Shown here piece after piece: positions 10,477 to 63,651 of a DNA stretch of 64,000 nt. A program made the position numbers and the translations under genes. The notes beneath the pieces were generated by a model. That model was given only the letters and a program-made list of their open reading frames with translations. It searched no databases and was not told the origin of the DNA. Source of the DNA: a virus; the IMG/VR virus record IMGVR_UViG_3300045017_000165, positions 20,701 to 84,700 of that record; one strand, written 5' to 3'. Position 1 is the stretch's first letter. The number at the start of each line of letters is the position of its first letter.

Positions 10477-10928
10477 TGCAAGCACTACGCGCTTATTCAC
10501 ACTCAGCCATTCCAATCTTCTTTTTCGAGCCCGCTGAAACGCAGCCCCAAGTAGGGGATCAGCCGCCGGTTGAAAAAGCTTTGGGGTTTCCTCCTGTGGG
10601 TGGTTTTATGGTGGAGTACTCCGGCGATGACCTCTCGCTTTTTGGAGTAAGCGTAGAGGAAGAAAAGGCGCAGGAAGTCCTGTTCGCCATCAATGTACTC
10701 CTACCAGAAGAGCCAGAAACAGTCGTGGCGACATCTGTTAAACGCACTCCAGAGCCTATGTATATTGTAGGTCACGGAGTTAGTAGAAGTCCAGAAGAGT
10801 CAAATATATTCGGCGCTGCGGTTGAAATGGATGCCAATTGGGAGTCAACTGGTATAATCTCTTTATACGTAGCTAAGTTACGAGAGGACGACGCGCCTCT
10901 CGGTCTTGGAGTTGAAATACATGAATAA
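10476..10928 (+). CDS. Hypothetical acidic protein
   Basis: 150 aa, TGATG coupling to upstream gene. Confidence 0.55.
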   Translation: MQALRAYSHSAIPIFFFEPAETQPQVGDQPPVEKALGFPPVGGFMVEYSGDDLSLFGVSVEEEKAQEVLFAINVLLPEEPETVVATSVKRTPEPMYIVGHGVSRSPEESNIFGAAVEMDANWESTGIISLYVAKLREDDAPLGLGVEIHE

Positions 10929-11082
10929 ATCATTTCTGCATGGTTTTGAAAAAACTGCCGCGGCGTCTCTGCCAAAGTGGCTACGTGAGCACCACAAGAC
11001 AATCAATCCGCTCAAAACGCTAAAAAACTTTAGTGGTAAATCTATTCATAAAACCAAAGCCGGAAGGGAGCTGCGCAAATGA
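10921..11082 (+). CDS. Small basic protein with FxxGFEKTA leader (not in ORF track)
   Basis: Translated by hand: MNKSFLHGFEKTAAASLPKWL...ELRK*, 53 aa; RBS GGAG; overlaps next start (ATGA). Confidence 0.7.
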   Translation: MNKSFLHGFEKTAAASLPKWLREHHKTINPLKTLKNFSGKSIHKTKAGRELRK

Positions 11083-11927
11083 CCAACAAAGTGCGCTGGC
11101 ACGTTTTTGATGACGCCGACGTTGATAGCTTTAACGTCTATAGAGCCATCACTGGTCTAACAGTGACATTCCCAAACGCACTGCAGAGCGGTGATAAGCT
11201 AACATTCGCTGCAACTAGCCCGCAACAGCAGACCGTTACGCTGCGACCCGATGCACCCAGTATCGATACCGTACTAGCTGACATCAACTCACAAGCCAAA
11301 GGAATCGAAGCCTCTAAAAGCACCGATAATACTGAGCTGTTCATCCGCTGCACGGCTAAAACTAATCCCAAACTTAAGCTTTTTTCATGCTCGTTTCTAA
11401 CTCACTTGGGAGAACAGCCAAGGATCATAGTGGCTAAACTCGAATGGTCCGTGGTCGGTAATGTACTTTTTGAAGAGGGTACATCTGCCTATGGGTTCGA
11501 TGACGAGAATGGTGATCCGCTCGATTGGTATCATGTCACCTCAATAAAAGATTCTGTGGAATCAATCCCAAGCCAAGATCAACAAGCATTACTTGTGCCA
11601 GAAGATTTCTGCGTAGTTGAGGGGCGTATTGTCGACATCCAGAACAATCCTATTTCGGGAGCGGAAGTAAAAGCCTCTATTATGATTCCAGTCGGAACTT
11701 CAGATAATGCGGGCATCACAGTCCAATCTAAATCAATGGTTAGCGACAGTCTTGGTCGCTGGAACCTGCCAATTCTTCAAAAACAACAAGTACTTTTTGA
11801 AATTCCGGCAATCCGGTATAATCAAGTCGTAGAGATACCTGAGCAGCCATACATCTTGTTCAAGGATCTGAAACCACTAAACGATCACTACTTTGCGCCA
11901 GCGGGAGAGCCAGAAGGCGGAGTCTAA
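11079..11927 (+). CDS. Virion protein with C-terminal transthyretin/carboxypeptidase-regulatory-like domain
   Basis: VVEGRIVDIQNNPISGAEV...SDSLGRW motif; precedes portal. Confidence 0.5.
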   Translation: MTNKVRWHVFDDADVDSFNVYRAITGLTVTFPNALQSGDKLTFAATSPQQQTVTLRPDAPSIDTVLADINSQAKGIEASKSTDNTELFIRCTAKTNPKLKLFSCSFLTHLGEQPRIIVAKLEWSVVGNVLFEEGTSAYGFDDENGDPLDWYHVTSIKDSVESIPSQDQQALLVPEDFCVVEGRIVDIQNNPISGAEVKASIMIPVGTSDNAGITVQSKSMVSDSLGRWNLPILQKQQVLFEIPAIRYNQVVEIPEQPYILFKDLKPLNDHYFAPAGEPEGGV

Positions 11928-11930
11928 TAA

Positions 11931-13754
11931 ATGAGCTCAGATCCATCACAACCAAGCGGTAATGTAGATCCGAATCTCAGGATGTCCTACGAACGTGGTA
12001 GGACGCGCTACCCCTCGCCATTTTTTGACGTCTCTCAGCAATACATCCCGCCCACAGTTAAAGAGATGTTTAAGTGGGTATACTTCTACGCCACCAACAA
12101 CTCATTTCTAGGACCAGCTCTTAATAAGATCGCCCGCTATCCGATCACAGATCTAATCATAGAAGACCACAACGCTAAGGTAGCTGATAACTGGAAAACC
12201 CTACTGAATAACACTCTTCAAATTAAGACCTTCGAGATGGAAGTAAATCTCGACCTCACTACTTACGGCAACGCTTTCGTTTCTATCAACTATCCGTTCT
12301 CTCGCTTCTTGGTGTGTCAGGGGTGCAAGCACCGTCACCCATGGAAAACAGTTTCTAAGCGAATAGAAAACCTCTCAATCAAAATTAAATGTCACAAATG
12401 CGGTTACAACGGGATCGCTAAGATTCATGATGTTCAGTATAAGTCCGCTGAAGGTGTGCGGCTTATAAGACTTAATCCAGAATTTATCGACATTAAGTAT
12501 AACGACTCCACCGGCAGACATGTTTACCTATACTCAATACCGGATAAGCTAAAACGCATGATCATGTCGGGTGATTCCGACATCATCGAGGACACACCTG
12601 AAATCTATCTCGAGTCCATTAGACAAAAGAAAAAGATTAGGCTTAGCAATCAAAATGTTTTTCACCTCAAAAGACCATCCCTTGCCGGCAAAGACATGGG
12701 TTGGGGAATGCCGCTAATCGCTACAGCGCTGAAAGACTTGTTTCACTACTATACACTTCGTCGTGGACAAGAAGCTGTAATGTTGGAACACATCACTCCG
12801 TTTGATATTTTGTTCCCACAAGCTAACGGAAAATTCGACCCGTACGTTCATTCCGACCTCACTTCATGGAAAGCTGAAATTCAAAGACAAATCGCAGCTA
12901 AACGTAAAGATCCGAACTACAAAGCGGTTCTTCCATTCCCTGTGGGATTTGAACGAATCGGCGGTGATGGCAAAAATCTAATGCTCACTCCGGAGCTAGA
13001 TTTTCTCGCCAAGACCATCATCGGAACTTGCGGTATTCCGCAAGAATTCGTGTACGGCGGTACAATGAACTGGTCCGGATCTTCCGTAGCACTTCGTACG
13101 CTCGAAAACGAATTTCTCCACCACCGCTCACAGCTACTTCAAATGATTATCTGGATAGTCGATCGTCTTAGAGTTTATCTTGATATTATGCCTCCCAAGT
13201 CAATCAAGTTCTCTGACTTCAAGATGGCTGATGATATGCAAAAACTTCAGCTGCTCTTCAACGCTGCCGATAAAGACAAACTCGACTGGGAAACGATCTT
13301 TAAAGAATTGGGCTACGACTACGAAGTGGTTAAGCGTAAGATCGAAGAGCAAAAGCTCTTTGAGGCGAAACTTACAGAGGTACAGTTGGTAAGGCAGGCG
13401 GAAGCTCAAGCCAAAGCTCAACAAGTCGCTTTAAGATATCAGCAAAAAGTTCAGGGCTCTGAACAGCCACAGACAGAACAAGAAGCCGCTCAGGAGTCCA
13501 TACAAGAAACGACAATTCAAGCTTGGGCAAAACGCCTTGCTGCACAATCAGTAGAACAACAGCAGCAAGCACTAGCTAGACTAGAGCAGCAAGATCCGCA
13601 ATTCGCTGCTAAGATCAAAGCAGCGCTAGCTGGGTTGTCACAAACACAACCAGCAACTTCTACCAAAACCACACAGAAACCAAAAGCTGGTGAACAGATA
13701 GATATGCGGCAAGCACCGGAGCAAAAACCTCCGCGCAGACAGGGAGGCATCTAA
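11931..13754 (+). CDS. Portal protein
   Basis: 607 aa; LTTYGNAFV, VFHLKRP..GWGMPLI, CGIPQEFVYG portal-type segments; Q-rich coiled tail; CxxC..CxxC insert. Confidence 0.8.
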   Translation: MSSDPSQPSGNVDPNLRMSYERGRTRYPSPFFDVSQQYIPPTVKEMFKWVYFYATNNSFLGPALNKIARYPITDLIIEDHNAKVADNWKTLLNNTLQIKTFEMEVNLDLTTYGNAFVSINYPFSRFLVCQGCKHRHPWKTVSKRIENLSIKIKCHKCGYNGIAKIHDVQYKSAEGVRLIRLNPEFIDIKYNDSTGRHVYLYSIPDKLKRMIMSGDSDIIEDTPEIYLESIRQKKKIRLSNQNVFHLKRPSLAGKDMGWGMPLIATALKDLFHYYTLRRGQEAVMLEHITPFDILFPQANGKFDPYVHSDLTSWKAEIQRQIAAKRKDPNYKAVLPFPVGFERIGGDGKNLMLTPELDFLAKTIIGTCGIPQEFVYGGTMNWSGSSVALRTLENEFLHHRSQLLQMIIWIVDRLRVYLDIMPPKSIKFSDFKMADDMQKLQLLFNAADKDKLDWETIFKELGYDYEVVKRKIEEQKLFEAKLTEVQLVRQAEAQAKAQQVALRYQQKVQGSEQPQTEQEAAQESIQETTIQAWAKRLAAQSVEQQQQALARLEQQDPQFAAKIKAALAGLSQTQPATSTKTTQKPKAGEQIDMRQAPEQKPPRRQGGI

Positions 13755-14143: not shown

Positions 14144-14359
14144 ATGGCGTTTATTGAGCGAACCACTCGAGCGGTTAGACGGTTTAATATTAACGATGCC
14201 GAAGAGCTCGAGCAGTACAACAGCCTTATTCGAGACCCCAAGGTAAAGGTGATTAGAGACCAGGTACTGACTCAATCCGAAAGCCACTTTGAAGAGGGTT
14301 TTAGCACTACCACTACGAACCATATTGTACTAGTGGAGGTTGAGATATGTTCTTTGTAA
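14144..14359 (+). CDS. Hypothetical protein
   Basis: 71 aa in operon. Confidence 0.55.
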   Translation: MAFIERTTRAVRRFNINDAEELEQYNSLIRDPKVKVIRDQVLTQSESHFEEGFSTTTTNHIVLVEVEICSL

Positions 14360-14577
14360 GGGGATTCGCAAAGACTGCCGCTCCACTTGGCGACAACGCA
14401 TTTATAGGAGATACGGGCGGTAAATCTGACATTGCAGACACCACCGCGACTCAACTAAAATGGGAAACTAGTTCAGGTGCGTCCCCCGAAAATATTGGCT
14501 ATAATGAGCCAGAAGATCTTAACACACGTAAAAAGATTCGCAGTCTTTTTAGAAAACCACGGAGACTCGTCAGATGA
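14347..14577 (+). CDS. Leader-bearing small protein (MFFVRGFAKTA)
   Basis: Shared N-terminal motif; RBS GGAGG. Confidence 0.7.
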   Translation: MFFVRGFAKTAAPLGDNAFIGDTGGKSDIADTTATQLKWETSSGASPENIGYNEPEDLNTRKKIRSLFRKPRRLVR

Positions 14578-14966
14578 CTAACTTCGTCAATGGCTTTGAA
14601 AAAACAGCGGCTAAAGCTCAAGCGGCTTCTAAAGCAATGGACACAGCAAAGAAAATTTTGCATGGCGGTAAAGATGTTGCCGTGGCGTTTGGTAAGGGTG
14701 TTAAAAGTTCTGGCGGGCATACGGTTAGCGACGTGCTCAAGCTTAAAGGTCTTTATTCAACTCCCGCAGAAGCTATCAAGCGCTCTGGTGGCATTCATAA
14801 AGCACTAACTACAGTTCAGGGTCGCAAAGCACTTTCAGAAGCAGCTGGAAAAGTACTTCCACAAGCCGTAGCTGCTGGAGCTTACGGAGCTGGCGCTAAA
14901 AAACTTTACGATGCTACTCTTGGTTCTGATAATCAGAGTGCTGCATCTATGGGGTACTATCAATGA
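14574..14966 (+). CDS. Leader-bearing basic protein (MTNFVNGFEKTA)
   Basis: Shared N-terminal motif; ATGA coupling. Confidence 0.72.
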   Translation: MTNFVNGFEKTAAKAQAASKAMDTAKKILHGGKDVAVAFGKGVKSSGGHTVSDVLKLKGLYSTPAEAIKRSGGIHKALTTVQGRKALSEAAGKVLPQAVAAGAYGAGAKKLYDATLGSDNQSAASMGYYQ

Positions 14967-15163
14967 ACTTCCTAAAATCGTTTAAAAAAGTGGCTATGGA
15001 AAAAGTGGCTGAGCCACCAATCCCAGGAACGGGGATGGACAAACTTTTGAAAGGGTTGCGTGGTACTTTTGGTGGGCAACCTAAACCCCCAAAAACCACG
15101 ATGGTAACTCCACCACCGACAACGCCTAAGCCTTTAGCACCAGTTAAACCGCTGAGCTCATAA
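14963..15163 (+). CDS. Leader-bearing Pro-rich protein (MNFLKSFKKVA)
   Basis: Shared N-terminal motif; ATGA coupling. Confidence 0.65.
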   Translation: MNFLKSFKKVAMEKVAEPPIPGTGMDKLLKGLRGTFGGQPKPPKTTMVTPPPTTPKPLAPVKPLSS

Positions 15164-15164: not shown

Positions 15165-15344
15165 ATGGCATTCATTAAGTCGTTTGAAAAAACCGCAGCC
15201 ATTAAGCTCGCGCAAACCATTAATGAACGTATTGGGAATCCCTTCGGAAAAGTCACTCCGAAAACTCCGCCTCCACCACCAGCGGCACCAGCCAATGTTG
15301 GGCAGGGTAAAACGATCGGTCAGATGATTGGTTTTCCTGGCTAA
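15165..15344 (+). CDS. Leader-bearing Pro-rich protein (MAFIKSFEKTA), not in ORF track
   Basis: Translated by hand, 59 aa, ends IGFPG*. Confidence 0.7.
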   Translation: MAFIKSFEKTAAIKLAQTINERIGNPFGKVTPKTPPPPPAAPANVGQGKTIGQMIGFPG

Positions 15345-16476: not shown

Positions 16477-19400
16477 ATGAGAACATTTCACGGCTCCGCG
16501 CAATTCGATGCATTGAAAACTACTGTTACTGATGCGTACAAAAAACTATTTCCAGTTTATGCCAAGGGGCAGGAAGGCAAGAGTCCGTCACTCCACTTAA
16601 AGAATATTTGGGTAGATGATGCAGAGCTGGATCCCAACAACTTTACAGATCAGAAAAAAACTAAGCTCGCAGGAAGAACTTGGGGAGCTCCCGTATTTGC
16701 GGACATCGAATTGAAAGACCCCTCAGGTCATGTCATTGACAAACTAGATAAAATTCGCATCTCAACCATTCCAAGGCTAACCCCGCGTGGCTCCTACTTG
16801 GTGCAAGGTAGTGAATATCAGATAGCCAATCAGTTCCGCAGAAAGGCGGGCGTGTACGTTCTACCCATGGCTACTGGGGATCAGTTCAAGGCGGTGTTCA
16901 ACGTTCTGGGAGAAGGCTCACGCAACTTTGAAGTACACCTTGATCCTAAGTCCAATAAGTACGCACTAAAGGTAGGGCAGGGGTTCATGCCCCTCTACCC
17001 GTTCTTAAACGCGCTCGGTGCAAAAGACGATGACCTGAAAAAAGCTTGGGGTGAAGAGGTGTTCGCAGCCAATAAAGTTGACCCCAATAAGCACGTACAG
17101 AAATTGGCTGAAAAACTTACGCGAGTAAAGACAGACAACAAACAGACAGCCATCGAAGCGCTCCATAACTTCGGCAAAGCAGCGAAGCTAGATCCCTCTA
17201 TTACCGAGCTAACTCTTGGTAAAAGTTACGCGCAGCTCGATCAGCACGCGATAATCGCAGCCAGCAAAAAACTAAAGGACGTTTACCACGGCGTAGTCGA
17301 ACACGATGATCCCGAGAACATCCTCTTTAAAGAAGTTCTATCAGTTGAAGACATGCTTCACGATAAGCTTACCAGTAAAACCCAAACTGATGCTCTTAAG
17401 TATTCGCTATCCAGAAAGCTCGGAAAGCGCACTAAAATCAAAGACATCGTAGACTTCAGACGTCTGGCTGGTCCTGTGGAATCTTTCTTCACCTCAGACA
17501 CCAGAAGCAGTACCCCAGAGCAGTACAACCCTATCCACATGCTCTCAGAAAGTCAGAAAGTTACCCTGCGCGGTACTGGTGGCATTACTGACCCACACAC
17601 CATCACAAGTAGTGTGCGCGAAGTTCATCCATCTCACGTAGGATTCGTGGATCCGGTGCATACCCCCGAAGGTGAGAACATCGGCGTCACCATGCACCTA
17701 GCCGCTGGAGCAGTTAAAGACGGTCGCGCAATCAGAACTCCTGCAGTAAATGTACGCACTGGTAAAGAGGAACTCCTTACCCCTAAAGAACTGTACACGA
17801 AGGTAGTGGCATTCCCAGATGAAGCTAATATCTCAGATAAGGGTGTGCAGTTCAAAAATAAGCTAGTCAAAGCGCAGCGTCTTGGAAAGATGTTAGAAGC
17901 CGAGCAACACAGCGTGGACTACGTGATTCCGTCGCATACGACGATGTTCAGCTACGCTACGAATCTCGTGCCGTTCCTTCACAGCGATCAAGGTAATCGT
18001 ATCGCCATGGCTGCAAAACACTTGAGCCAAGCAATCCCACTAGTCGATCGTGATGCGCCAAACGTTCAAACTGAGGTTGCACCTGGAAAGAGTTTTCACG
18101 AGGTGATTGGTAGGCAGTTCGCGGTCCACGCCCCTGAAGACGGAGTAGTAACTAAAGTTACGTCTGACTTCATCGAGGTCGGTAAACATAAAATTCACCT
18201 CTATAATGATTTTCCGCTAAGACAAAAAACGCTCCTTCACCACGAACCGCTAGTTAAAGTGGGAGATAAAGTTAAGAAGGGTCAGCTCATCGCAGACTCC
18301 AACTTTACAAAAAATGGTACGCTTGCCCTCGGTAAGAACTTGAAAGTCGCTTACCTCCCGTATCCGGGTCTAACTTTCGACGACGGTATTGTCATCACCG
18401 AAAGTGCGGCTAAAAAACTTTCAACTGTCCAGGTGTACAAGCACGCGTTTGAAGTTGAGCCGGGAGCCAAGAAAACTGACCTCCGCATGTACTCGGCTTA
18501 CTTCCCGAACGTCATTGGAAAAGATCTGCATAAAAAGTTTGACGTTGACGGTGTCATTAAAAAAGGTGCTGTCGTAAACCCTGGGGAACTCGTAATCGCT
18601 GGTTTGAAGTATGATCTAGCCAATCCTGAACTCGCTACACTAAAGCGCATTAATAAATCCCTCGCACGTCCATGGTCAAACGCAGGACAACACTATTCGG
18701 GTGAATTCCCAGGAGTAGTGACAGATGTAGTTAAGCGTGCAGATACTGTAGAAGTCTATATTAAAGCCGTCGAGCCAGCCAGAGAATCGGACAAACTATC
18801 GGGCGTTCACGGCAATAAAGGCGTCATTACTAAAGTGATTCTCGATAGTGAAGCGCCAAGAACTAAAGACGGAAAAATACCCGACGTTATCTTGAATCCT
18901 CACGGGATCATCGGTCGTATTAACGCCGGACAAATATTTGAGTCCGCCGCAGGAAAAATTGCCGAGAAGACCGGAAAAACTTACGTGGTGAAAAACTTTA
19001 ACGGTAAGAACACCGGTAAGGAAATTCTGAAAGAACTTGAGGCTCATAATATCGATGACATGGAAGAAATGTTTCTTCCTAATGGAAAATCGATGGGCAA
19101 AGTTCACATCGGTAATCCCTATATTCTCAGACTCTCCAAAACAGGTAAGACTGGCTTCTCTGCCAGAATGCCTGGCAGCGGTTATGACCCGAACCAGCAA
19201 CCTACTAAAGGTGGTGAAGAAGGCTCTAAAGCTCTCGACCTGCTCACATTCTATTCGATGCTTTCTCACGGTGCTAAAAAAAACCTTGCAGACGCTCACC
19301 AGAAATCAGAAAAAAATGACGAGTACTGGCATGCAATTGAAATGGGAAAACCACTTCCAGCTCCACGACAAACCTACGCGTTCAACAAGTTCATCTCTCT

Positions 19401-22400
19401 GTTGCACGGTGCCGGCGTTAATACTGTTAAACAAGGTAATAACGTCATTCTCGCACCGCTAACAGATGGTGCTGTTAAAAGACTTAGTCACGGTGAAATT
19501 AAAGAACCAGAGTTTCTTCATGGAAAAGACTTAAAAGAAAAGAAGGGTGGCTTTTTCGACCCTGCGCTTACTGGTGGTAAAGCCGGCAAGAACTACACCC
19601 ACATCGAGCTGAAGGAGTATCTGCCAAATCCAGTGTTTGAGCGCCCAATCAGATCACTCTTAAATTTAACCGCTGCCGATTACGCTGATATAGTGAGTGG
19701 CACTAAACATGTTAGTACTGAGGGTAAAGTCCTGACCACTTCCGCTAAAGGGACTCTTACTGGAGGCAACGCTATCCAGCATCTTCTATCAAAGATAGAC
19801 GTAGATAAAGAAATAGAAGCTACCACCAAAAAGCTTCCTTCTATGCGAGAAGGAAACGATCTTAACCAGTTGAGCAGAAAACTTCGGTATCTGCACGCGC
19901 TTAAGGAGCTCGATCTTAAACCTCAAGACGCGTATGTTAGAAAACTAATTCCCGTTGTTCCGCCTGAATTCCGACCCATTTATGAAACGGCTAAACGTGG
20001 TTTGCAGGTGGCGCCAGTAAATGTTCTCTACCAGAACGTTGGTATCCTAAACAAGTCTCAAGATCTCCCCGTAATGTCTTTACTCGAAGATTCTGAGAAG
20101 AAGGACTTACGTACCGAGCTTTACCACTCGACTAAGACACTCGCTGGTCTCGAAGAGATCATGCGCACAAAAGAACAGCCAATAAGAGGTTTCCTATCGC
20201 AGATCACTGGTGACACACCCAAAACCAGTTTCTTCCTCAACAAGGTCATCAATAAACGACAAGACCTAGTAGGTCGCGGCGTTATTACAGCATCTCCTGA
20301 TCTCCACATCGATCAGCTAGGTATACCCGAGAAGATGGCTTGGAAAATTTTTCATCCATTTATCATTAGAGAGTTCACTTCATCCGGTATTACTCCAGAC
20401 ATCGCGAGAAAAGAAATCGAAGAGAAAACTCCCCGAGCGAAACAGTTCCTTCAGACTGCGATGGACAAGAGAACCGTTCTAATGAATCGCGCGCCGTCAC
20501 TACACAAATTCTCTATAATGGCGTTCAAGCCGACCATCACTGATGGACTTGCTATTAAAGTGCCCCCGCTAGTTCTAAAGGGGTTTGGCGGAGACTTTGA
20601 CGGAGATTTTCAACAAAATCGCGTACTTGTTCATCTCACAGAAAAAGTTTTGCTTGAGATTGAGGAGGTACTTGGGCATAGTTACGCCAAGGAGCGCGAT
20701 GTGACCGCCAGATATAAAGAATCAGTGGTGTTAAAGAAGGGCGAAAAAGTTCTCGCTATCGATCTACAAGATTTTCCTGTCGGAGCGCTGGTAGCGACTC
20801 GTGAAGCCTCGAAAGGGCAAATAGATCTCTATGAAGCTATTCCTGGTACAAACGTTATTGCGTACGATGAGCAGAGCGGACGAATCGAGTTAAAGCCGGT
20901 GACCTATTGGTCCAAGCACTACGACCGCGAAGTAGAAATCGTTACTTTAGTGTCAGGGCGTCAAATCGTAACTGATGACGACCCCAGAGCCGTGTATGGA
21001 ATTCCAGCAGGATTTCTGTCACCTGCTAGGTTTACACCAGAACACGCCGTAGCTAAAACTGTATTAGTACCGCGTGCTATAAACATTAACCCCGTTGAGT
21101 CTATCGTAACCACGTATGTAGATCTCGAGACCGAGGAAGGGGACCTACTAGCTTTACCGCTCAACGAAAATCTTGGCTACCTGATAGGAGCCGCCGCAGG
21201 AGATGGCTGGAGTGACGACAGGCACTTCTGTCTGGCGTCAATTACTCCCGAAATTCCGGCTAAAGTTTTTGCCGCTCTAAAAGATCTCGGGCTAGTTAAA
21301 CCGGACAGTAAATTCTATAAGTCGGATCGTAAACAGGCTGGGCTGGGGGACGTTAGCTCCAAGTATTCGTGTGGCGGAGCTAGACTAGCCAAGTTCATTA
21401 AGCACAGCATCGGGCATCGAGCGAAGAATAAGCACTTACCCGAGTACTTTCTGGGTGCGAGCAGAGAGTTTAGAGAAGGGTTATTTGCTGGTTTGATGGA
21501 CACGGATGGGTCAATCTCGGTATCGAACGCAAAAGATAAAGTTTCACCGCAGTTGATGGCTAACTACAGCACTAATAGCCTTCGTTTAGCGAGAGAAATC
21601 CAGCTTCTCGCGCGAACGCTGGGGATTAGAGCTAGCATTACTGCGTCCAAAACTCCTGCGGGTAATCCATGTTGGATGATGAGCTTTTCAAACGTAGACA
21701 TCAAACAGTGGGATGGTAAGAGTATGCAACATCCCGGAAAACTAGCCAAGCTCGCTAGTATCCAAGAGATAAAGAAAACCGCCTCCACAGCTAAACTCGA
21801 TATCATACCCATCACCAAAGTGTTGGCTACGTTTATCGCTAAAACATTAGGAGCTCCAAGAACCGCTCCAACCGAACACAAAAGACTCTACGGAATTGCT
21901 AATCAGGCTGCTAAAGATGGATTCGTTTCAAGGCAGTCCATCGATGCTGTCATTGAAAAGATTTCACGCAAAGTCGTAGCCTCCCATCCCGACGGTCAAA
22001 GGTGGCTGGCACTACTAGACAATCGCGATGTCACGTGGGATCGCTGCGTATCTTTCGAGCGTACGGGTATCAAAGAAACCGGCTACGATCTCACAGTGCC
22101 AGGACACGAAACTTTCATGGCTGTCGACGGTGTCATCCTCTCTAACACAAGCACCATCCACGTGCCGACAAGCGACGAAGCCGTACGAGAATCTTTCAAG
22201 ATGCTCCCTTCACAAAATCTGTTTAAGCCCGGGACCGGGGAGTTGATGATTCAACCATCGCAAGAAAACGCGATCGGTCTTTATTTCCTTTCTCAGTCAA
22301 AGGAAGGGCGCGCCAGAATAAATGCGCTACTTCCCAAAGACCACCACATCTCAGCAGCTCTTGATAAGAAGGGGCTGGGTAGTCTCTTCAACAGTCTAGC

Positions 22401-24144: not shown

Positions 24145-24638
24145 TGTTTAACTCAGGATTTGAAAAAACAGCACTTCAAGCCAAATTCATCGGTAAGGGT
24201 CTAGGTTATTCTGCTAAGGGAGCTCGCGCAGTGGGTCAGCACTTGAAACGCGTAGCTGCGGGTAAGACTGAGCTGCAGAAAAGTATCCGCGCCGGTAAAG
24301 AAGAAGTCATGCGCGCAGGCAAGAGTGAGCCTGGCGAGAAACTACTTCAGAAACATATCGAAAAATTCACCTCTGGCAAAAAACCACATGAGAAGCTAAT
24401 TCCTGGTGAAACAAAACGGAAGCTTCAAACTGTGCGCGGTCAGAAAGAATTTAAAGAAGCTTTTAGAGAAAAAGCTAAGCAGCGTCTAGAGAAGATGGAA
24501 GAGTCCAAGCCAACGTTCATGCATAAACACCCACTACTTACGGCTGGCGGTGCAGTGCTTGCCTACAAGTCGCTCTTTGGCGAAAAAGATTCTGAACAAA
24601 AACAATTTCCATCCATCACCTACCCACAGCAGTACTAA
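24144..24638 (+). CDS. Leader-bearing basic protein (MFNSGFEKTA)
   Basis: ATG overlaps RNAP stop (TAATG); RBS AAGGAG; start corrected from track. Confidence 0.75.
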   Translation: MFNSGFEKTALQAKFIGKGLGYSAKGARAVGQHLKRVAAGKTELQKSIRAGKEEVMRAGKSEPGEKLLQKHIEKFTSGKKPHEKLIPGETKRKLQTVRGQKEFKEAFREKAKQRLEKMEESKPTFMHKHPLLTAGGAVLAYKSLFGEKDSEQKQFPSITYPQQY

Positions 24639-47712: not shown

Positions 47713-49655
47713 TGATGGATAAGCGCCTTATTTTTCCTGGCAACACTAACGATAATCGCGACCTCTTTTTCGTTAAGGAAGATCGCAATTATCTTGTTAA
47801 GAAAGCCTCGAATTACCACCCTAAAATTGCGCAGTATATTGAAAAAGCGCAGCCCATAGATGATCTGGTGCAAGTGCTCCTAACGGCTCTGGGCGCTTAC
47901 GAAGCATGGGGTCAGAACGTTAATGGTGACATCTTCAAAATTCCTGCGCTTTCTCACGAGGGAGATGATTACGGCTACCAGACGTTTAAAACCACCGGTA
48001 ATTATTTCACGCACCATAATAACAAGGATCCGGCTTTAGCTAAGGGCAAAGTTCTACACTCAGTGTGGAATGATAAGGCTAAACGAGTTGAACTTGTTGT
48101 CGGTATTAATCCTAAACTGGATCCAGATGCTATTGCTGAGATAAGCAATGGTAACGATCTGTGCTTCTCGATGGGCGCTAAAGTTCCCTACGACGTTTGC
48201 TCAGTATGCGGCAATAAAGCAAAAACTCGGGCTGACTACTGCGAGCACCTTCGCTACATGTTAAACCAGATTGATCCTGTTTCAGGTCTTTTGGTCGGCG
48301 CCGACAATACATTCCCTAAATTCTTTGATATCAGTCGGGTTTTAATACCAGCTGATAAGACAGCTTATATGTGGACAAAGGTAGCTTCAGCTGCCAATCC
48401 ATTTCAGAAACTGAGCAGTTCATTCCTAGCGGCGCTTCCAGCAGGTAAGTTGAATGACACCGAGTTTCTGCAAAAATGCGCGGATGAGCAGGCAGAGATT
48501 GCGCGCGATCGTTTCAGCACCAAGAAGATAGCCGTCGTCAATAAGGATGCCTCCATCATTAAGCGGGTTCCGCTAAAGATTGACGCCAACGCCTCTGATA
48601 AAATAAACGCAGACAGCACAGGTTTAGAGCAACTCGAGTCTAGCGTAGGTACAGCGGCTAAAGCTCTGCAAGCGGTGTCGCCGGACATTCCTAAGGAAAA
48701 GTTTTTAAAAGCTAAAGATAAGTCAGATGCCATTCTGACCATGCTACTTCTAGGAATGGTACCGAAAGTTGGCGAGCTAGATTCGCTCAAAGAAGCGGAT
48801 GAGCCGGCTGCATCATTTCCATCTGGAGTTGCCCACAAGACTGCCGAGGCTTTTAACAGTGAGTTAGCAGAGGATCTATCCGGATTCATTCCAGAAAGGT
48901 CTTTTGCAAGACCTTTCCTGCTTCAAAGATCTATCAAGCTGGCATCTCAATTAGAGCTGGAAAAGACTGCCGAGACAGTGAATGATCTGATGGAGCGAAA
49001 CCGTAATCCTCAGCTTAAACCGTCCCCCATCAGTCCGGAACTACTGGTTGGATCACTTGCCGCCATATTCGCGGCAAGCCCCCTTATCCGTAAGATGGTT
49101 ATGAATAACCCTCTGATTGCTATGGCTCTCGGCGCCGGTCTGTTGGCTGGTGGCAAGACTCTTATAGACACTCCTCCCAGAACTGGTTTTTATGACGTTG
49201 ACGCGGGGATTAGTGGCTTATACAATAAGGGCTGGCAGAGTCGCTTTATGGACTACCAATCGCGTCCTGTCACGGTTATTAAAACCGCTAACGATCGGAA
49301 TGTAGGTTTGTACAAAAAGTTATTTTACGGCGTTCCAGCCATTTATTTAACGTCTAAACTTTATGACACGTACCACGACCTACATCCGGAGAAGCGGCGT
49401 CATCCGGTAATCGGAACCATAGCAAAACATCCAGATTTATTGTCGTTCGGACTCATAGGAGAACACTTAGGTGGTCGCCCCGTCAGTAAGCGGATATCTG
49501 CTTTGCTCGAATCCGGTAAAAGAGCTGTTAAAACAGCATCCTTAAATGATATCGAATTTTTAAGTTCTGCTCCTGAAGAGGAGCGTGAGTTGCTGTGGGA
49601 CTTTGCAATCTTAGATTGCGCAAATCGCATAAGTGACAAGTTGTTAGGAGGATAA
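47712..49655 (+). CDS. Prohead (capsid maturation) protease
   Basis: FTHHNNKD (His), FSMGA (Ser), CSVCGN..YCEHL, FFDISRVLIPAD; HK97/assemblin-type; upstream of scaffold and capsid genes. Confidence 0.8.
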   Translation: MMDKRLIFPGNTNDNRDLFFVKEDRNYLVKKASNYHPKIAQYIEKAQPIDDLVQVLLTALGAYEAWGQNVNGDIFKIPALSHEGDDYGYQTFKTTGNYFTHHNNKDPALAKGKVLHSVWNDKAKRVELVVGINPKLDPDAIAEISNGNDLCFSMGAKVPYDVCSVCGNKAKTRADYCEHLRYMLNQIDPVSGLLVGADNTFPKFFDISRVLIPADKTAYMWTKVASAANPFQKLSSSFLAALPAGKLNDTEFLQKCADEQAEIARDRFSTKKIAVVNKDASIIKRVPLKIDANASDKINADSTGLEQLESSVGTAAKALQAVSPDIPKEKFLKAKDKSDAILTMLLLGMVPKVGELDSLKEADEPAASFPSGVAHKTAEAFNSELAEDLSGFIPERSFARPFLLQRSIKLASQLELEKTAETVNDLMERNRNPQLKPSPISPELLVGSLAAIFAASPLIRKMVMNNPLIAMALGAGLLAGGKTLIDTPPRTGFYDVDAGISGLYNKGWQSRFMDYQSRPVTVIKTANDRNVGLYKKLFYGVPAIYLTSKLYDTYHDLHPEKRRHPVIGTIAKHPDLLSFGLIGEHLGGRPVSKRISALLESGKRAVKTASLNDIEFLSSAPEEERELLWDFAILDCANRISDKLLGG

Positions 49656-51140: not shown

Positions 51141-51143
51141 GAA

Positions 51144-52428: not shown

Positions 52429-53349
52429 ATGTCTTTTCAAGAAGAAGCAACAACGTTCAATAATTTGTTCGTTGAGCGTATGGACACCACCGATGGACAG
52501 ATCAAGACAGCTCAGGCTGGTCAAGCTTATGTCCGTTCGTTCTTGCGTGAACATTCGTTCAGCCGCAAAGTTCTTCCGCCCGAGTCTGTGACTCGTTCGG
52601 ATCTTACCCGTTCGACCCGTCATGACACTCTGATGAAGATTGTCGACTTCGAACATCCTTCAACTGCAGCAGTTGTCAACTTCCGCTCAGCCGGTCGTGA
52701 ACGCTACTTGCAGGGCAAGCGCTACGCGGTTCCGTTCTTCAAAGTTGAGAGCGATCTCTTCGTGAAGAATGAAGCTGAGTTGCTTGCTTACGAATATCCG
52801 ATCACCAAAGTGATTGAAGAAAACAGCATTAAAGACATTATGGCTGTTGAAGACTCGGTCTTCATGAATGTCTGTAACGGTGCTGTTACGACTTCTGGTA
52901 AGAAGATCGTTTCGACCGACACCACGGTTACTCGCAGTAACCTCAATAAACTCGTCAAGATGATCGACGTGGACAAGCTCCAGTCAACGATGTTCTTGAT
53001 GACCAACGTCGATTTCGACGATTGGCACGTTCAGCCAGCTACCGACATCGGTTCACCGCTGGCTTCTGAGATCGTGACGAAGGGCTATCAGTACGACAGC
53101 ATTCTTCGCCGCAAGCTCGTTGTGACCAACAAGACCGATTTGTTGGCTCCTGGTCACATCTTTGCTTTCACGGATCCTCAGTTCCTCGGCAACTTCTTCA
53201 TCCTGAACGACGTTAAGTTCTGGATTAAGAAAGAAGCTGATAAGGTCCTCTGGAAGACGTGGGAATACGTCGGCATGGGCGTCGCCAACCTCCGTTCGAT
53301 CGCGAAGATTGAATTGGCTGTTCCAGCGATTCCACATCCTGATTTCTAA
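52429..53349 (+). CDS. Major capsid protein (HK97 fold)
   Basis: 306 aa, very strong RBS (AAGGAGGAGGAGG), biased codons, LREHSFSRKVLP, EDSVF, WEYVGMGVAN; terminator follows. Confidence 0.8.
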   Translation: MSFQEEATTFNNLFVERMDTTDGQIKTAQAGQAYVRSFLREHSFSRKVLPPESVTRSDLTRSTRHDTLMKIVDFEHPSTAAVVNFRSAGRERYLQGKRYAVPFFKVESDLFVKNEAELLAYEYPITKVIEENSIKDIMAVEDSVFMNVCNGAVTTSGKKIVSTDTTVTRSNLNKLVKMIDVDKLQSTMFLMTNVDFDDWHVQPATDIGSPLASEIVTKGYQYDSILRRKLVVTNKTDLLAPGHIFAFTDPQFLGNFFILNDVKFWIKKEADKVLWKTWEYVGMGVANLRSIAKIELAVPAIPHPDF

Positions 53350-54489: not shown

Positions 54490-56811
54490 ATGTTTACATC
54501 AGGATTAAATAAACTAGCCGCATTAAAACCCGGAGTTAAACTCAATCCTATTCAGGTGGGAGCTGTTAAGAGAGTGGAAGATGGTGATGGTTCACACGTC
54601 TTTGCTCACGACGTCGGCTTAGGTAAAACGCTCACTTCTATAGCAGCGTTTGAAAAATTGAAAGAGATGGGTAGAGCGACTAAAGCATTGGTTATAGTAC
54701 CAGCGACGCTTAAGGATAATTTTGTTACCCATGGAGTACGAAAATTTACTAACAGCTCTGTCCATAGAGTAGACGATGGTAAGGAAAAACTTGATCCAAA
54801 GAAAACTTATAACGTCATAAGTTATGAGCTCTTCAAAAAAGACCCCGCTAGATACGTTGCCGAATCTGGTGCCGACACTATCATAATGGATGAAATGCAT
54901 AGAGTGCGCGACGAGGGTACGCAAAACTACAAGAAGTCCTTAGAAGCCCGCGGAATGGTTAAAAACTTCATAGGCTTAACCGGCAGTGTTATTAACAATA
55001 GCCCTAAAGAAATAGTTCCAATGTTGGATGTGGTCACTAATAGAACTCATCCTTTTGGCAGTAAAGACTCCTTTTTGAACAAACTATTCACGGAACAGGA
55101 AAAGAAAACGGGAGTACTGGGATTGTACGGAAATACAATCACCACTTGGGAACCAAGAAAACCTCCCGAGTACATCGGAAAAACGTTGAAAAAATTTATC
55201 GACTACAAAACGGTGCAGGATATAGATTCCAAAGACCTGCCGAAGCTAAAGGTTTCAGAGATTAAAGTGCCGATGTCGGAAGCTCAAGCCGATGTGTATA
55301 GGTGGGCTTTGAGAGAAGCCGGTCCTATAGCAGAGCGGATTGTCAGTTCTAATTTGCCAGTTGATCAAAAAGAAGCCTCACATGTATTCGCGAAGATTTT
55401 GAAAGCTAGACAGGCGTGCAATGCGATACATCTATTTAAAAAAGATATGACGCTTTCAGAGTCCGCTGTCAAAACTCCTAAAATTAAGAAAATTTTAGAC
55501 GACGTAGAGGAGCACCTGAAAAGTGGTGATGACCACAAAGTAGTTGTGTTCAGCAATTTTGTGCACGGTGGTACGGACGTAATTAGCCAGGGGCTGAAGG
55601 ATCGCGGTATTGAACACGGCTTGTTTCTAGGCTCTGGTCAAGAAGGCAGCACAACTAAAAAAAGAGCGGCGGCTGTAGAAGCCTTCAACGCTAATAAAAC
55701 TAATGTAATCGTATTATCTGGAGCGGGTGGTGAGGGGATCTCTTTTCCAAACGCTACTCTGCATGTATCTGTCGACGGTCACTATAACCCTGAAAAAATT
55801 AATCAAGCTGAGGGAAGAAGTAGACGTTTCGGAGGACAGCAGCACAGGGAGCCAGAACAAAGGTCAGTTGAAGTGAGAAGATATGTGTCTACTATACCCA
55901 CCACTAGAAAAGCGTTTTCTGTTGTCGGAGCATTAGCAGCAGGAAAACCATTAGACGCGCTGGATATCGTTACTGGTAAGGAAAAGAGCGCGGATAGTGC
56001 TGACCAGTGGGTTTACGCGGTAGCGAGTAAAAAACAAAAAATGAACGATCACCTTAAAAATATAATAAAGACCGCATCTTTGAAAAAAGACGAGGAGCTT
56101 GAGCGTTATTTAGAAGGAACAACCACGATTAAATTGCCGACGAAGTATAGTAAGGTTCTGCATCAGTACTACGCTAAGATTAAAGATAGACCGCAGACAG
56201 TCGCCACGTTGCAAGCTAGACTTCAGGATGATTTGGACTCTTTGCTTTCTAAGCATGAAAAAATGCAGAACACGTCGGCGCTACGAAATTACACCACTAT
56301 GTTCATACCCTCATTCCTGACTTCCTACCTACTAGGAGCGGGACAGCTTCAGATGCGGCTAGGAAAATTGGATAGAGTTGCACATGATACGAGAATTGAT
56401 TCGCACGATTTTTTGAAAACATCCGCACAAAGTGACTCCTACAGCTCAAAAAAACGGGACACGTATAGCAAAAGCATTGCGGCAATAGGGCTAACTCCGT
56501 TGGCATTAACTTTGGCTGACCTAGCACTTAAACATCGATCAGCTGGATATCGCAACTTAAGAAAAACGTTGCCGGGTAAGGTAGGATTTGTCGCTGCCAA
56601 TATAGCAATACCGTACGGATTGGGATATTATCTCTTTCCTAAAAAAGCTCCCGTCAACGCCAAAAGCATTAATACGGCAAATCTATTAGCCCACGCTGAC
56701 GACAAAACCTACGACACACTTCTATCTGGCGGGGGGATAAAGATCAAAAGAAAATCCCTATATGATACCGGCGCGGCTGAGAACGTACTACGGCGTTGGT
56801 CCGACAGATAG
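54490..56811 (+). CDS. SNF2-family helicase/ATPase with leader and hydrophobic C-terminal extension
   Basis: HDVGLGKT, IMDEMH, GLTGS, GEGIS, QAEGRSRR; start corrected to MFTSGLNKLA. Confidence 0.88.
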   Translation: MFTSGLNKLAALKPGVKLNPIQVGAVKRVEDGDGSHVFAHDVGLGKTLTSIAAFEKLKEMGRATKALVIVPATLKDNFVTHGVRKFTNSSVHRVDDGKEKLDPKKTYNVISYELFKKDPARYVAESGADTIIMDEMHRVRDEGTQNYKKSLEARGMVKNFIGLTGSVINNSPKEIVPMLDVVTNRTHPFGSKDSFLNKLFTEQEKKTGVLGLYGNTITTWEPRKPPEYIGKTLKKFIDYKTVQDIDSKDLPKLKVSEIKVPMSEAQADVYRWALREAGPIAERIVSSNLPVDQKEASHVFAKILKARQACNAIHLFKKDMTLSESAVKTPKIKKILDDVEEHLKSGDDHKVVVFSNFVHGGTDVISQGLKDRGIEHGLFLGSGQEGSTTKKRAAAVEAFNANKTNVIVLSGAGGEGISFPNATLHVSVDGHYNPEKINQAEGRSRRFGGQQHREPEQRSVEVRRYVSTIPTTRKAFSVVGALAAGKPLDALDIVTGKEKSADSADQWVYAVASKKQKMNDHLKNIIKTASLKKDEELERYLEGTTTIKLPTKYSKVLHQYYAKIKDRPQTVATLQARLQDDLDSLLSKHEKMQNTSALRNYTTMFIPSFLTSYLLGAGQLQMRLGKLDRVAHDTRIDSHDFLKTSAQSDSYSSKKRDTYSKSIAAIGLTPLALTLADLALKHRSAGYRNLRKTLPGKVGFVAANIAIPYGLGYYLFPKKAPVNAKSINTANLLAHADDKTYDTLLSGGGIKIKRKSLYDTGAAENVLRRWSDR

Positions 56812-56828: not shown

Positions 56829-57158
56829 ATGTTTTCGTTAGGCTTTAAAAAAATAGCCTTTGTCTCCAAGCACACCAAAGAAAAGCTTATTAAGTCTACG
56901 CCTAAAGAGAAGGGTGGTAAGGATGGCAAGAGCAGTTATTTCTTGCGTTTCCATCCCAAAGAAAAACGGTGGAGTTGTACCTGTCCTGACTGGCAAATAC
57001 GTAGAAGGTGGCTGGGGAAAGAACACAAGAAGCACCACGACTGCAAGCATATCAAAGCGCACTTAAGCCGTACGTCTGTGTGGAAGACTAAAGAAAAGAT
57101 GCGCAAGTATCCGAAAGAAGTTTTGGAAAGTCTCCGCGAGGAAAGATCTTCCAAATAG
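56829..57158 (+). CDS. SWIM zinc-finger protein with leader (MFSLGFKKIA)
   Basis: WSCTCPDW...DCKHIKA. Confidence 0.82.
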   Translation: MFSLGFKKIAFVSKHTKEKLIKSTPKEKGGKDGKSSYFLRFHPKEKRWSCTCPDWQIRRRWLGKEHKKHHDCKHIKAHLSRTSVWKTKEKMRKYPKEVLESLREERSSK

Positions 57159-57286
57159 TTTAGTAAAAACGCCACCTTACAAAATTTTCTCCCCTCCTAG
57201 AATAGCGCGGCAAGCCACACCTATACTTATGAGTAGGGGAGGGGCGGTTCTCAACTCCAACTCGGAGGCGGTGCCGTTCAGCACTG

Positions 57287-59023: not shown

Positions 59024-59350
59024 ATGTTTAAAATTGGATTTGAAAAGACAGCCGTCTCTGTGGGGTGGGCGATGAGAAAAATACAGGGCGGTCTAAGAAC
59101 AAGAGCGGGATTGCCCAGAGACCCCTCTAAAGTCGATCGCTTCATCAACCGCAGTCGTAGCGCGATGTCACGTGAGCTAGGTGACTCTCCAAAAGAGATT
59201 AAAAAACTTATGACCTTGCCAGTCCGTCACTACAAGGACGAAAATGTACTGGAGCTTGTTAAGGAGCTCAGGGATACTCGCAACAATCCGTCTAAAGCGC
59301 TGAAGAAACTTCTGCAGTCGGAAGTTTTCTTGAACAAAGCTGGAGCGTGA
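59024..59350 (+). CDS. Leader-bearing basic protein (MFKIGFEKTA)
   Basis: Start corrected; RBS GGGAG. Confidence 0.72.
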   Translation: MFKIGFEKTAVSVGWAMRKIQGGLRTRAGLPRDPSKVDRFINRSRSAMSRELGDSPKEIKKLMTLPVRHYKDENVLELVKELRDTRNNPSKALKKLLQSEVFLNKAGA

Positions 59351-59351: not shown

Positions 59352-59756
59352 ATGTTTAAAGTTGGGTTTGAAAAAACAGCCCTAGACCCGAAGAAGTTAG
59401 AAACGCGCTTGCAAGAGATTCTTAAACATAAGCGCTTTGCAGGCAAGGCTGCGAAGACTCAGGCTCTTAATGCTGCTGACGAGTACAGAATCGCTAGATC
59501 TACAGGGCAGTCGGCACTTCCACATATTCACAGTCTTCAAAAGCAGTTCCCGAAACTAGCCGCGCTAAAACCGTTTACTATGAGTCGCGGTAGGATTACA
59601 CCTACGCTTATCCCGGGTAATCCCGTGAAGGGATTGAAGGGTTTGACTGGAGCGCAGGCTGCGACACCGTTTAATAAGGCTGTAGGTAGGTTTGGACACA
59701 AACCTAGACAAGCACTTGTAGCTAAATCAAACGTAAGAGCTAATGATGGGACTTAG
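59352..59756 (+). CDS. Leader-bearing basic protein (MFKVGFEKTA)
   Basis: Shared N-terminal motif; RBS GGAG. Confidence 0.72.
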   Translation: MFKVGFEKTALDPKKLETRLQEILKHKRFAGKAAKTQALNAADEYRIARSTGQSALPHIHSLQKQFPKLAALKPFTMSRGRITPTLIPGNPVKGLKGLTGAQAATPFNKAVGRFGHKPRQALVAKSNVRANDGT

Positions 59757-62574: not shown

Positions 62575-62598
62575 TCTTAAGCTATAGGAGGATCGCTA

Positions 62599-63315
62599 AT
62601 GGCGACGACAGATTTTTCAAACTGGGATTTTAGTAATTACCACGTTCAGCAGGAATTGCAGGGCGGTCAGTTCGTGTCAGCCGAAACAAGCTTGATCGCG
62701 GCTGGTCCTCCGGAGATTGGCGGCACTGGACCTTACTCAAATCAGCCAGCTTCAAGTGTAAGTACGGTTTATCCGATCGGACTTATCGAGAACGCTGGAT
62801 TAAGCCAGTCTAAGCAGATCCAGAAGATTTTTGAAGTAGGTTCTTCCCGCTCTTACTTCATTCCTGGTCGCGTGATTGGTTCAGTGAACCTCGGGCGTAT
62901 TTTTTACTACGGTCCGAGCCTACTTCGCGTAATGTATTCGCACTATCAGAGTGATACTGGTGCCGTGAAGATTGGCACGAAAGATTCTGGAACGATGCTT
63001 ACGCTTCCAGACGGCAGCTCTGCTCCAGATCCTTTGGCGCGACTTCTTAATAAAGGCGGACCATTCCATCAGGTTAAGGTCAGCCCTGGTGAAGATTACT
63101 TCTACATCAACCTGGCTTCGGATTTATTTAATCAACCGACAGGTCTTGCGTTCTACTTCAAAGACGCGAACTTCAACTCGGTTGGTGCGTTCTATCTTGA
63201 GCAGGTTTACGTGCAAGGTCATCAGTTCTCTGTGTCTTCAGGATCAGTTTTGATCATGGAAGGCGCGGCAGCCCAGTACGATCGTATCGTACCAATTAAA
63301 CTACTCAACTCTTGA
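62599..63315 (+). CDS. Tail tube protein
   Basis: Follows sheath; PIGLIEN..SQ..IFEVGS.RSYFIPG; YLEQVY. Confidence 0.75.
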   Translation: MATTDFSNWDFSNYHVQQELQGGQFVSAETSLIAAGPPEIGGTGPYSNQPASSVSTVYPIGLIENAGLSQSKQIQKIFEVGSSRSYFIPGRVIGSVNLGRIFYYGPSLLRVMYSHYQSDTGAVKIGTKDSGTMLTLPDGSSAPDPLARLLNKGGPFHQVKVSPGEDYFYINLASDLFNQPTGLAFYFKDANFNSVGAFYLEQVYVQGHQFSVSSGSVLIMEGAAAQYDRIVPIKLLNS

Positions 63316-63333
63316 GAATGAGAGATTTACACT

Positions 63334-63651
63334 ATGTTTACCTCAGGCTTCAGCAAAACAGCTGGCGATGATAAAAAAGAAAAGCGTATCGCTGGAGCCA
63401 TGCATTCAGTGAATCCTTTGGCGGGTGCTACATACTCGGCTATGCAGCACCCCAAAAAGTCAGTAATGCCCTTTTTAGTGAGCGGCGCTGGCGGGCTTTT
63501 AGGACTTGCTGCGGGAAAACACACCGGAAGAATTCTTTCCAACATCGCGCACATCGAATCCCCTGCTAAAAGAGCTATTATAAAAGGTATGCTCGGTGCA
63601 TTGGGTGCGTACTACGCGGGCGCTAAAGGACACGAGCTTTCCTCTAAGTAG
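63334..63651 (+). CDS. Leader-bearing glycine-zipper protein (MFTSGFSKTA)
   Basis: Shared N-terminal motif; GxxxG helices. Confidence 0.7.
   Translation: MFTSGFSKTAGDDKKEKRIAGAMHSVNPLAGATYSAMQHPKKSVMPFLVSGAGGLLGLAAGKHTGRILSNIAHIESPAKRAIIKGMLGALGAYYAGAKGHELSSK

Follow-up and report, generated by a model that had tools for sequence, protein, structure and literature searches.

An N-terminal leader on unrelated phage proteins as a candidate capsid-targeting propeptide linked to a predicted prohead protease

We analyzed a 64,000-nucleotide (nt) stretch of DNA, hereafter the window, which spans bases 20701-84700 of the 84.7-kb contig IMGVR_UViG_3300045017_000165 from an uncultured tailed phage. 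Fifteen of its genes, otherwise dissimilar, open with a shared N-terminal leader, or tag, of about ten residues, whose front part is an aromatic F-x-x-G-F and whose last five residues read hydrophobic-x-K-x-A. We think it probable, with some reserve, that this leader is a propeptide comparable to the capsid-targeting sequence (CTS) of phage T4, marking head-internal cargo and clipped off after its Ala. An earlier note made from the sequence of the window had called the leader a capsid-targeting signal. Its link to a prohead protease gained support in silico: the same motif marks the head-core proteins, the N-terminus of a protease candidate and the N-terminus of the capsid protein; the capsid homolog of phage G is cut at the aligned Ala; the protease candidate has a gp21/assemblin fold; and the tagged cargo is basic. 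Removal of the tag, loading through it and injection of the cargo are steps that we infer from the sequences.

Results

A leader conserved at the protein level

We scanned all six frames of the window with the regular expression F..[GS][FL].K.[AS]. This returned exactly the 15 starts that the earlier note had listed (Table 1), all of them genuine starts of open reading frames (ORFs) on the + strand, with the match lying 1-4 residues past the start codon; 50 shuffled sequences gave a mean of 0.32 matches. Fourteen of the starts are ATG and one is GTG (46054), the ORFs range from 53 to 773 amino acids (aa), and most are preceded by a GGAG-like site 7-12 nt upstream. When the scan was extended to the whole contig, a check suggested in the note, the remaining 20.7 kb, which carries + strand late genes including tail-fiber genes, contributed no further match. 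No minus-strand gene of the window or of the rest of the contig matched either, in agreement with the note's statement that the leader is confined to the + strand. The description of the tagged genes as members of virion operons holds insofar as they are late genes; since the tail-fiber region on the same strand lacks the tag, they make up a subset of the late genes.

The bodies of the tagged proteins had been described as unrelated, and our comparisons agree. In an all-against-all BLASTP of the tag-stripped bodies, every pair had an E value of at least 0.003, and the bodies span the Pfam families SNF2, SWIM, DUF6582 and Gly-zipper, with a DNA ligase added in a relative. By these measures, the bodies are unrelated or merely compositionally alike. 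The claim that the leader is kept as a peptide despite differing codons likewise held up. Across 68 leaders from five genomes, information at fourfold-degenerate third positions amounts to 0.02 bits in Gly codons and 0.11 bits in Ala codons, and the guanine-plus-cytosine (GC) content of phages sharing the same leader peptide ranges from 44% to 56%. The near-random synonymous third positions, together with this spread in GC, indicate that selection acts on the protein sequence of the leader.

We considered whether the motif could be a nucleotide-level signal, such as a translation start enhancer, a promoter or a recombination site, or else a trace of recent paralogy. Its constant position at the start codon would fit the former, but the freedom of the synonymous third positions largely refutes it, as the same peptide is also found at both ends of the GC range, and bodies that belong to different Pfam families speak against recent paralogs. 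We regard this explanation as highly improbable.

Within ORF 57287-58111, an internal ATG at 57395 would begin MFLPRLDKES, in which R replaces the G and S replaces the A of the leader. This may be a 16th copy of the leader or a decayed one.

The end of the leader recurs in head-core proteins

Across the six ORFs that span 45186-51904 we counted 26 copies of the hydrophobic-x-K-x-A motif where 6.0 were expected (z 8.6); ORFs 91-1191 and 27832-29889 contain 20, with an expectation of 3.7 (z 9.2). Elsewhere (11,700 residues) it is found at chance level (25 observed, 20.5 expected), and control motifs (reversed, K-to-E, K-to-R and shifted) were not enriched anywhere. Sites lie in register across orthologs, 8 of them in ORF 45186 and 6 in ORF 50271; no conserved in-register sites were found in the large terminase subunit (TerL) or in most tail proteins.

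Many of the internal sites show the full leader frame, hydrophobic-x-x-[GAS]-hydrophobic-x-K-x-A, and the residue after the motif Ala is commonly small (A/S/G). The site-bearing core proteins are acidic to neutral and rich in helix-forming residues, and cutting at all of their sites would leave pieces of ~20-40 residues, comparable to the scaffold cores of T4-like heads. From these sequence patterns, hydrophobic-x-K-x-A is most likely the cut motif of the prohead protease.

A prohead protease candidate with a gp21/assemblin fold

The AlphaFold2 (AF2) model of the candidate encoded at 47709-49655 (pLDDT 80) aligned with varicella-zoster virus (VZV) assemblin (Z 10.4, root-mean-square deviation (rmsd) 2.8, 114 residues aligned) and with T4 gp21 (5jbl_A; Z 10.0, rmsd 2.9, 130 residues aligned), the next-best structural match reaching Z 7.1. 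We note that only an exhaustive structural aligner separated the assemblin/gp21 match and that Foldseek results on this model were weak. Among PHROG families there was one weak match, to phrog_18299, "head maturation protease" (E 2.4e-8), and a search of the protease profile against PDB sequences returned nothing meaningful. Of the homologs of the candidate, those in Erwinia and Pseudomonas jumbo phages carry the annotation "head maturation protease"; gp222 of Salmonella phage Arash, gp19 of phage G and proteins of cluster C mycobacteriophages belong to the same family, members of which are encoded on more than 500 IMG/VR contigs.

H103 and S154, as well as K31 and A33 of the pro-region, are invariant among 36 protease sequences down to 40% identity. 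Hydrophobic-x-K-x-A is conserved at residues 29-33 and 222-226 (there as W-x-K-x-A), a further K-x-A lies near 273-275, and the motif appears near the C-terminus in three of five orthologs. The motif precedes and ends the protease fold, like the self-release sites of assemblin. Predicted complexes of protease residues 34-250 (36-row alignment) with the 46054 leader family gave ipSAE values of 0.29 and 0.00, against a mark of 0.32.

Three side observations concern this protease family. Residues 164-180 of the candidate and its homologs P0008, P0045, P0087, P0096 and P0112 share an invariant C-x2-C...C-x-H that looks like an inserted zinc ribbon. Inteins, recognized by LAGLIDADG/Hint Pfam domains, lie in several homologs ~1000-1100 aa long and also in the RNA polymerase (RNAP) gene of the window, so that both genes carry inteins in this lineage. 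In phage G, residues 42-47 of gp19 read G-L-V-K-T-A, two hydrophobic-x-K-x-A sites lie toward the C-terminal end of this protein, and the next gene, gp20, starts MSKKISRLKKTA; through these two genes the motif reaches a cultured phage.

The capsid motif coincides with a mapped cut in phage G

The capsid protein of the window matched phrog_2522 (major head protein, E 1.5e-18), and its AF2 model gave 332 Foldseek matches at E<=0.001, to capsids and encapsulins; a Pfam search of the protein gave no match. It is ~30% identical to the Arash capsid protein gp226 and 22% identical to phage G gp27. In an ungapped BLASTP alignment, A28/Q29 of the window protein coincide with A27/Q28 of gp27, and most of the related loci for which we identified a capsid protein have K-x-A at the corresponding place near its N-terminus. 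N-terminal sequencing showed that the phage G capsid protein, 282 residues long, has a mature form of 255 residues (Hua et al. 2017, PMC5646251, Table 1). The loss of 27 residues places the phage G cut after A27. By alignment, the position of the motif Ala is therefore a genuine maturation cut position in this homolog.

These sites bear on an alternative modeled on encapsulin cargo-loading peptides: the tag, like the repeated motif of the scaffold-like proteins, would dock to the portal or to the inside of the HK97-fold shell and would stay on its protein. In favor of this, short terminal peptides are established as loaders of unrelated cargo into encapsulins, whose shell has the HK97 fold, the capsid protein here has the HK97/encapsulin fold, and scaffold-like proteins, for which binding to the shell is a necessity, contain further copies of the motif. 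Encapsulin peptides, however, are usually C-terminal and uncleaved and involve neither a protease nor DNA, whereas the tag is strictly N-terminal. The motif also stands at the capsid N-terminus exactly where the phage G homolog is cut, it brackets the protease domain as herpesvirus release sites do, and an Ala followed by a small residue is established as typical of assemblin-type sites. An uncleaved docking peptide thus seems to us quite improbable.

In one low-GC clade (L101, L117, L126, L133 and L140), the capsid site reads E-L-x-E instead of K-x-A, and the protease N-terminus still carries L-x-K-x-A. Here the cut specificity may have shifted for a single substrate.

Basic cargo and a modular tag

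All 15 tagged proteins of the window have an isoelectric point (pI) of 9.5-11.2, compared to a median of 5.8 among the 39 other + strand proteins (p=1e-7), and 65 of the 68 tagged proteins from five genomes have a pI above 9. Several are glycine-zipper or Gly/Ala-rich proteins. The earlier note had also described the tag as modular, and its presence on a lineage-specific SNF2 helicase in the window and on an ATP-dependent DNA ligase in a relative (Pfam, 34 bits) supports this.

The similarity of the SNF2 protein (54490) to the Arash helicase gp217 starts at residue 12, directly past the tag, which marks the tag as an add-on to a complete enzyme. The SNF2 gene, the SWIM gene and a 274-aa ORF (57287) form a 3.6-kb insertion (window 54490-58111) unique to this phage, and the genes that flank it are adjacent to each other in all four relatives described below. 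The tag is carried by two of the three inserted genes. The SNF2 helicase also matched a DarB-like PHROG, weakly (E 2.6e-4). In mass spectrometry (MS) of virions of Arash, the one cultured relative that has a virion proteome, helicase gp217 ranks with the RNAP subunits among the most abundant proteins (PMC10585845).

Near the C-terminus of the SNF2 helicase are hydrophobic segments, and a GC-rich inverted repeat lies downstream of the SWIM gene at ~57190-57250. Tagged proteins of 230-259 aa in relatives (L073:19681-20373, L079:19841-20620 and L085:13998-14777) contain a G-x-G-x-x-G-like stretch, for example LGKGGEG...VVRK, reminiscent of protein kinases; a Pfam search of these proteins gave no match.

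The tag spreads through a lineage in clade-specific dialects

Using a DNA pattern back-translated from the tag, we found four related IMG/VR contigs of 55-175 kb. A looser DNA pattern matched 5-15 times in each of the four, almost all matches being on a single strand, and reversed-pattern controls gave 0 matches. At the protein level, each relative genome encodes 10-18 N-terminal tags. The four relatives are syntenic with the window, with capsid proteins ~80% identical and proteases 42-45% identical over their full length. Positional orthologs that retain the tag were found for the genes at 44830, 46054, 14574, 29893 and 10921. For about half of the tagged genes there is no detectable ortholog, indicating that tagged genes turn over fast.

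The form of the tag varies with the protease. Where the protease is at least 59% identical the dialect is MF..GF.K.A, and where it is 45-50% identical it is FW.GF.K[RKQ]A. Farther clades have N-terminal families of their own, F[LM]xGFxDELxKxA, MKYFEKxA and MxxIEKLA; we note that statements on these distant clades rest on the listed clade-specific families and that the ORF list there held many spurious ORFs. Within any one genome the tags keep to a single dialect, as would be expected if one partner recognized them all. In one clade, 3-4 inserted residues separate F-x-x-G-F from L-x-K-x-A, which suggests that the leader may consist of two elements, a leader-specific aromatic part and a general cut site.

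That partner could in principle lie outside the capsid, the tag being read by a modifying enzyme, a degradation system or a secretion route. The leader has no hydrophobic signal-peptide core, though, and the enrichment of the motif is specific to head-core proteins, the other 11.7 thousand residues showing none. All tagged genes are on the late strand, in neighborhoods of head, portal and RNAP genes. Moreover, the protease family is encoded in all four contigs that were found by the tag pattern, and tags are present in all seven loci with a protease at least 59% identical. From this motif distribution, these gene neighborhoods and these protease-bearing loci, we give little credence to a non-capsid partner.

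Among 596 Gb of prokaryote genomes, the tag DNA pattern gave 4 single matches, about the chance expectation, and this search yielded no reliable host clue. In one of the four, a 4.6-kb contig assigned to an Actinomycetota metagenome-assembled genome (MAG) (L153, RGER01000115.1), an RNAP-like ORF ends in ...EEGALLM and is followed by FTKGFEKTA, the same RNAP/tag junction as at 24144 in the window. This contig is a related-phage fragment binned into the MAG and a weak host hint. A literature search with the tag strings found no paper.

Discussion

A proposed load-then-clip mechanism

We hypothesize that the last five residues of the leader would serve as the recognition and cut site of the 47709-49655 protease, the F-x-x-G-F front part being specific to leaders. 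Some 15 late, strongly basic proteins would be made with the tag and would join the acidic, scaffold-like core proteins in the prohead as it assembles. The protease would then chop the core proteins at their many motif copies, trim the capsid protein after A28 and clip the tag off the cargo after its Ala. The mature basic proteins would remain with the packaged DNA and probably exit with it at infection.

A fuller version of this proposal, to which we assign slightly less than an even chance, holds that the tag is a two-part portable address, with F-x-x-G-F for loading and hydrophobic-x-K-x-A for release by a herpesvirus-like, Ala-specific protease. Across a very large and almost entirely uncultured lineage, each clade would have its own dialect of the address and would use it to bring into the head, next to a virion multisubunit RNAP, a changing set of nucleic-acid enzymes (SNF2 helicase, DNA ligase) and basic proteins that would be delivered together with the DNA.

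A simpler scheme gives the tag a role in cleavage only: the protease removes it, and sorting into the head depends on other features, such as charge or binding to core proteins or DNA. In one variant, the tag is a removable cap that keeps membrane-active or DNA-binding proteins harmless until they are inside the head. The last five leader residues do match the general head-core motif, the RNAP lacks the tag and is probably packaged nonetheless by analogy with Arash, and the basic charge shared by all cargo might by itself favor co-assembly with acidic core proteins. Nonetheless, F-x-x-G-F is conserved beyond what a cut site needs and survives as a separate element despite the 3-4-residue insertion, and ten residues would hardly suffice to block the activity of such diverse proteins as an SNF2 helicase, small glycine-zipper proteins and a ligase. 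We consider cleavage without a loading role unlikely.

Several observations weigh against the T4-like propeptide that we favor. The RNAP is probably packaged without a leader, so the tag would not be the sole route into the head. The F..GF.K.A leader is lacking in the cultured relatives Arash, phage G and Vibrio D69-like phages, and the whole Arash genome showed neither this tag nor an obvious N-terminal family; virion data from cultured relatives are therefore informative solely for homologous cargo and for the cut in the capsid protein. The phage G capsid cut site itself, V-A-L-A, has no Lys. The Arash virion dataset is noisy, listing 116 "virion" proteins that include ribonucleotide reductases (PMC10585845). 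Finally, no Pfam protease family matched the protease candidate at E<=0.01, and its predicted assignment consists of a fold-level match and the weak PHROG match.

Comparison with known systems

The closest parallel is the CTS of T4, carried by IPI-III and Alt and removed by gp21. There too, an N-terminal tag of ~10 residues is shared by unrelated, basic, fast-evolving proteins and ends in a protease cut motif that also serves to cut the scaffold core and the capsid protein. The prohead protease of T4 has the same gp21/assemblin fold as the candidate described here, which is encoded in the head module. The cut motif of T4 is (L/I)-x-E. The tag sequences of the two systems are unrelated, that of the window combining hydrophobic-x-K-x-A with the aromatic F-x-x-G-F front, and hydrophobic-x-E-x-A is not enriched in the window proteins. 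The capsid protein here is of a small, 306-aa HK97 type and not gp23-like, and whereas T4 has a handful of tagged genes, there are 10-18 per genome in this lineage, with a helicase and a ligase among the cargo. The logic and the protease fold are as in T4; the sequence, the cut motif, the capsid type and the number of tagged genes differ, and on these differences the tag is an analog, not a homolog, of the T4 tag.

In its cleavage chemistry, the system recalls the herpesvirus assemblin (pUL26-type), with VZV assemblin being the best fold match of the protease candidate. The herpesvirus cut consensus is (V/L/I)-x-A|S. Both have Ala before the scissile bond (predicted here) with a small residue (A/S/G) commonly after it, both have the motif before and at the end of the protease domain, and in both the protein continues into a long non-protease part. 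What sets the sites here apart is a Lys at the second position ahead of the Ala and a hydrophobic residue at the fourth. To our knowledge, herpesviruses have no counterpart of the N-terminal cargo tags.

In the giant phages phiKZ and SPN3US the cut motifs end in Glu (S/A/G-x-E and A-x-E), and the propeptides are long and heterogeneous and not a uniform ten-residue tag as in this lineage. Their heads enclose a large protein mass, and a gp21-like protease acts at one short motif on many proteins of the head interior, virion RNAP subunits among them (PMC5694885, PMC7411985). The Dar anti-restriction proteins of P1 are likewise large nucleic-acid enzymes that are packaged in the head and injected, and the DarB-like match of the SNF2 protein here is weak; P1 packaging proceeds via an ordered protein hierarchy and not via a shared short tag.

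If correct, the proposal would make it possible to recognize by sequence which proteins lie inside the head, and are probably injected, in a large, almost unstudied lineage that includes relatives of Arash, phage G and cluster C mycobacteriophages. Injected phage proteins are the usual place of anti-defense functions. For a prohead protease family lacking a curated model, it would also predict cleavage behind an Ala, as in herpesviruses, and it would carry the "load then clip" principle of T4 over to phages whose capsid proteins are small and of the HK97 type. The earlier note had raised a use in protein delivery. A tag of ten residues, carried in nature by a 773-residue helicase and by a ligase, would be a candidate means of getting foreign proteins into phage capsids, in the way that the T4 CTS loads foreign proteins into the head (PMC3012670). 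We see the main value in the testable cut-site rule and the cargo catalog for a large uncultured lineage.

Other features of the window

Table 1. Leader genes, predicted protease substrates and other landmarks of the window
Feature	Coordinates	Strand	Description
Predicted protease substrate	91..1191	+	366 aa; 11 sites, 7 conserved
Leader gene 1	10921..11082	+	53 aa, pI 10.9; leader MNKSFLHGFEKTA, 13 aa; tagged positional counterparts in G001-G003
Portal protein	11931..13754	+	Homolog of the Arash region where the annotated portal gp204 is inferred; leader genes on both sides
Leader gene 2	14347..14577	+	76 aa; leader MFFVRGFAKTA
Leader gene 3	14574..14966	+	130 aa; leader MTNFVNGFEKTA; orthologs in G001-G003 also tagged
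Leader gene 4	14963..15163	+	66 aa, Pro-rich; leader MNFLKSFKKVA
Leader gene 5	15165..15344	+	59 aa; leader MAFIKSFEKTA
Fused beta-beta' multisubunit RNAP	16477..24144	+	2555 aa; LAGLIDADG intein; no leader; flanked by six leader genes
Leader gene 6	24144..24638	+	164 aa, Lys-rich; overlaps RNAP stop codon; leader MFNSGFEKTA
Leader gene 7	24639..24845	+	68 aa; leader MSFSSGFIKTA
Predicted protease substrate	27832..29889	+	685 aa; 12 sites, 4 conserved
Leader gene 8	29893..30120	+	75 aa; DUF6582 / phrog_16160 body; leader MFTLGLEKTS; tagged orthologs in G002 and G003
Leader gene 9	44830..45156	+	108 aa, glycine-zipper; opens head module; leader MFLQGFTKTA; tagged ortholog in 4/4 relatives
Head-core protein	45186..46064	+	9 hydrophobic-x-K-x-A sites, 8 kept in all relatives
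Leader gene 10	46054..46269	+	71 aa, GTG start; leader (M)SFNKGFEKQA; counterpart in 4/4 relatives
Prohead protease candidate	47709..49655	+	N-domain at ~residues 34-226 with assemblin/T4 gp21 fold; long C-terminal part
Four acidic, helix-prone, scaffold-like ORFs	49657-50259, 50271-51140, 51144-51533, 51521-51904	+	Conserved sites every ~20-40 residues
Major capsid protein, HK97 fold	52429..53349	+	306 aa; conserved K26-T27-A28, predicted cut before Q29
Leader gene 11	54490..56811	+	773 aa, SNF2-family helicase; leader MFTSGLNKLA
Leader gene 12	56829..57158	+	109 aa, SWIM zinc finger; leader MFSLGFKKIA
Leader gene 13	59024..59350	+	108 aa; leader MFKIGFEKTA
Leader gene 14	59352..59756	+	134 aa, pI 11.2; leader MFKVGFEKTA
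Leader gene 15	63334..63651	+	105 aa, Gly/Ala-rich; leader MFTSGFSKTA

The RNAP ORF encodes beta (Rpb2) and then beta' (Rpb1) domains, with the intein at ~residues 1560-1890. In Arash the two halves are separate genes, gp206 and gp216, and both products are highly abundant in virion MS (PMC10585845); by this analogy, the RNAP of the window is probably a virion enzyme. RNAP orthologs conserve a hydrophobic-x-K-L-A at ~residues 205-231, a possible processing site.

Searches against cultured phages with the RNAP gene (megablast) and with ORF 46273-47712 (tblastn) found nothing, nor did a search for related loci with TerL alone. The minus-strand block of the window encodes a family A DNA polymerase. 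The TerL ORF (31618-34560) is 980 aa long, and its terminase match is limited to residues 508-973. Its N-terminal half matches P-loop helicase/primase PHROGs, and its orthologs in three relatives are ~570 aa long, which points to an N-terminal fusion or insertion in this phage.

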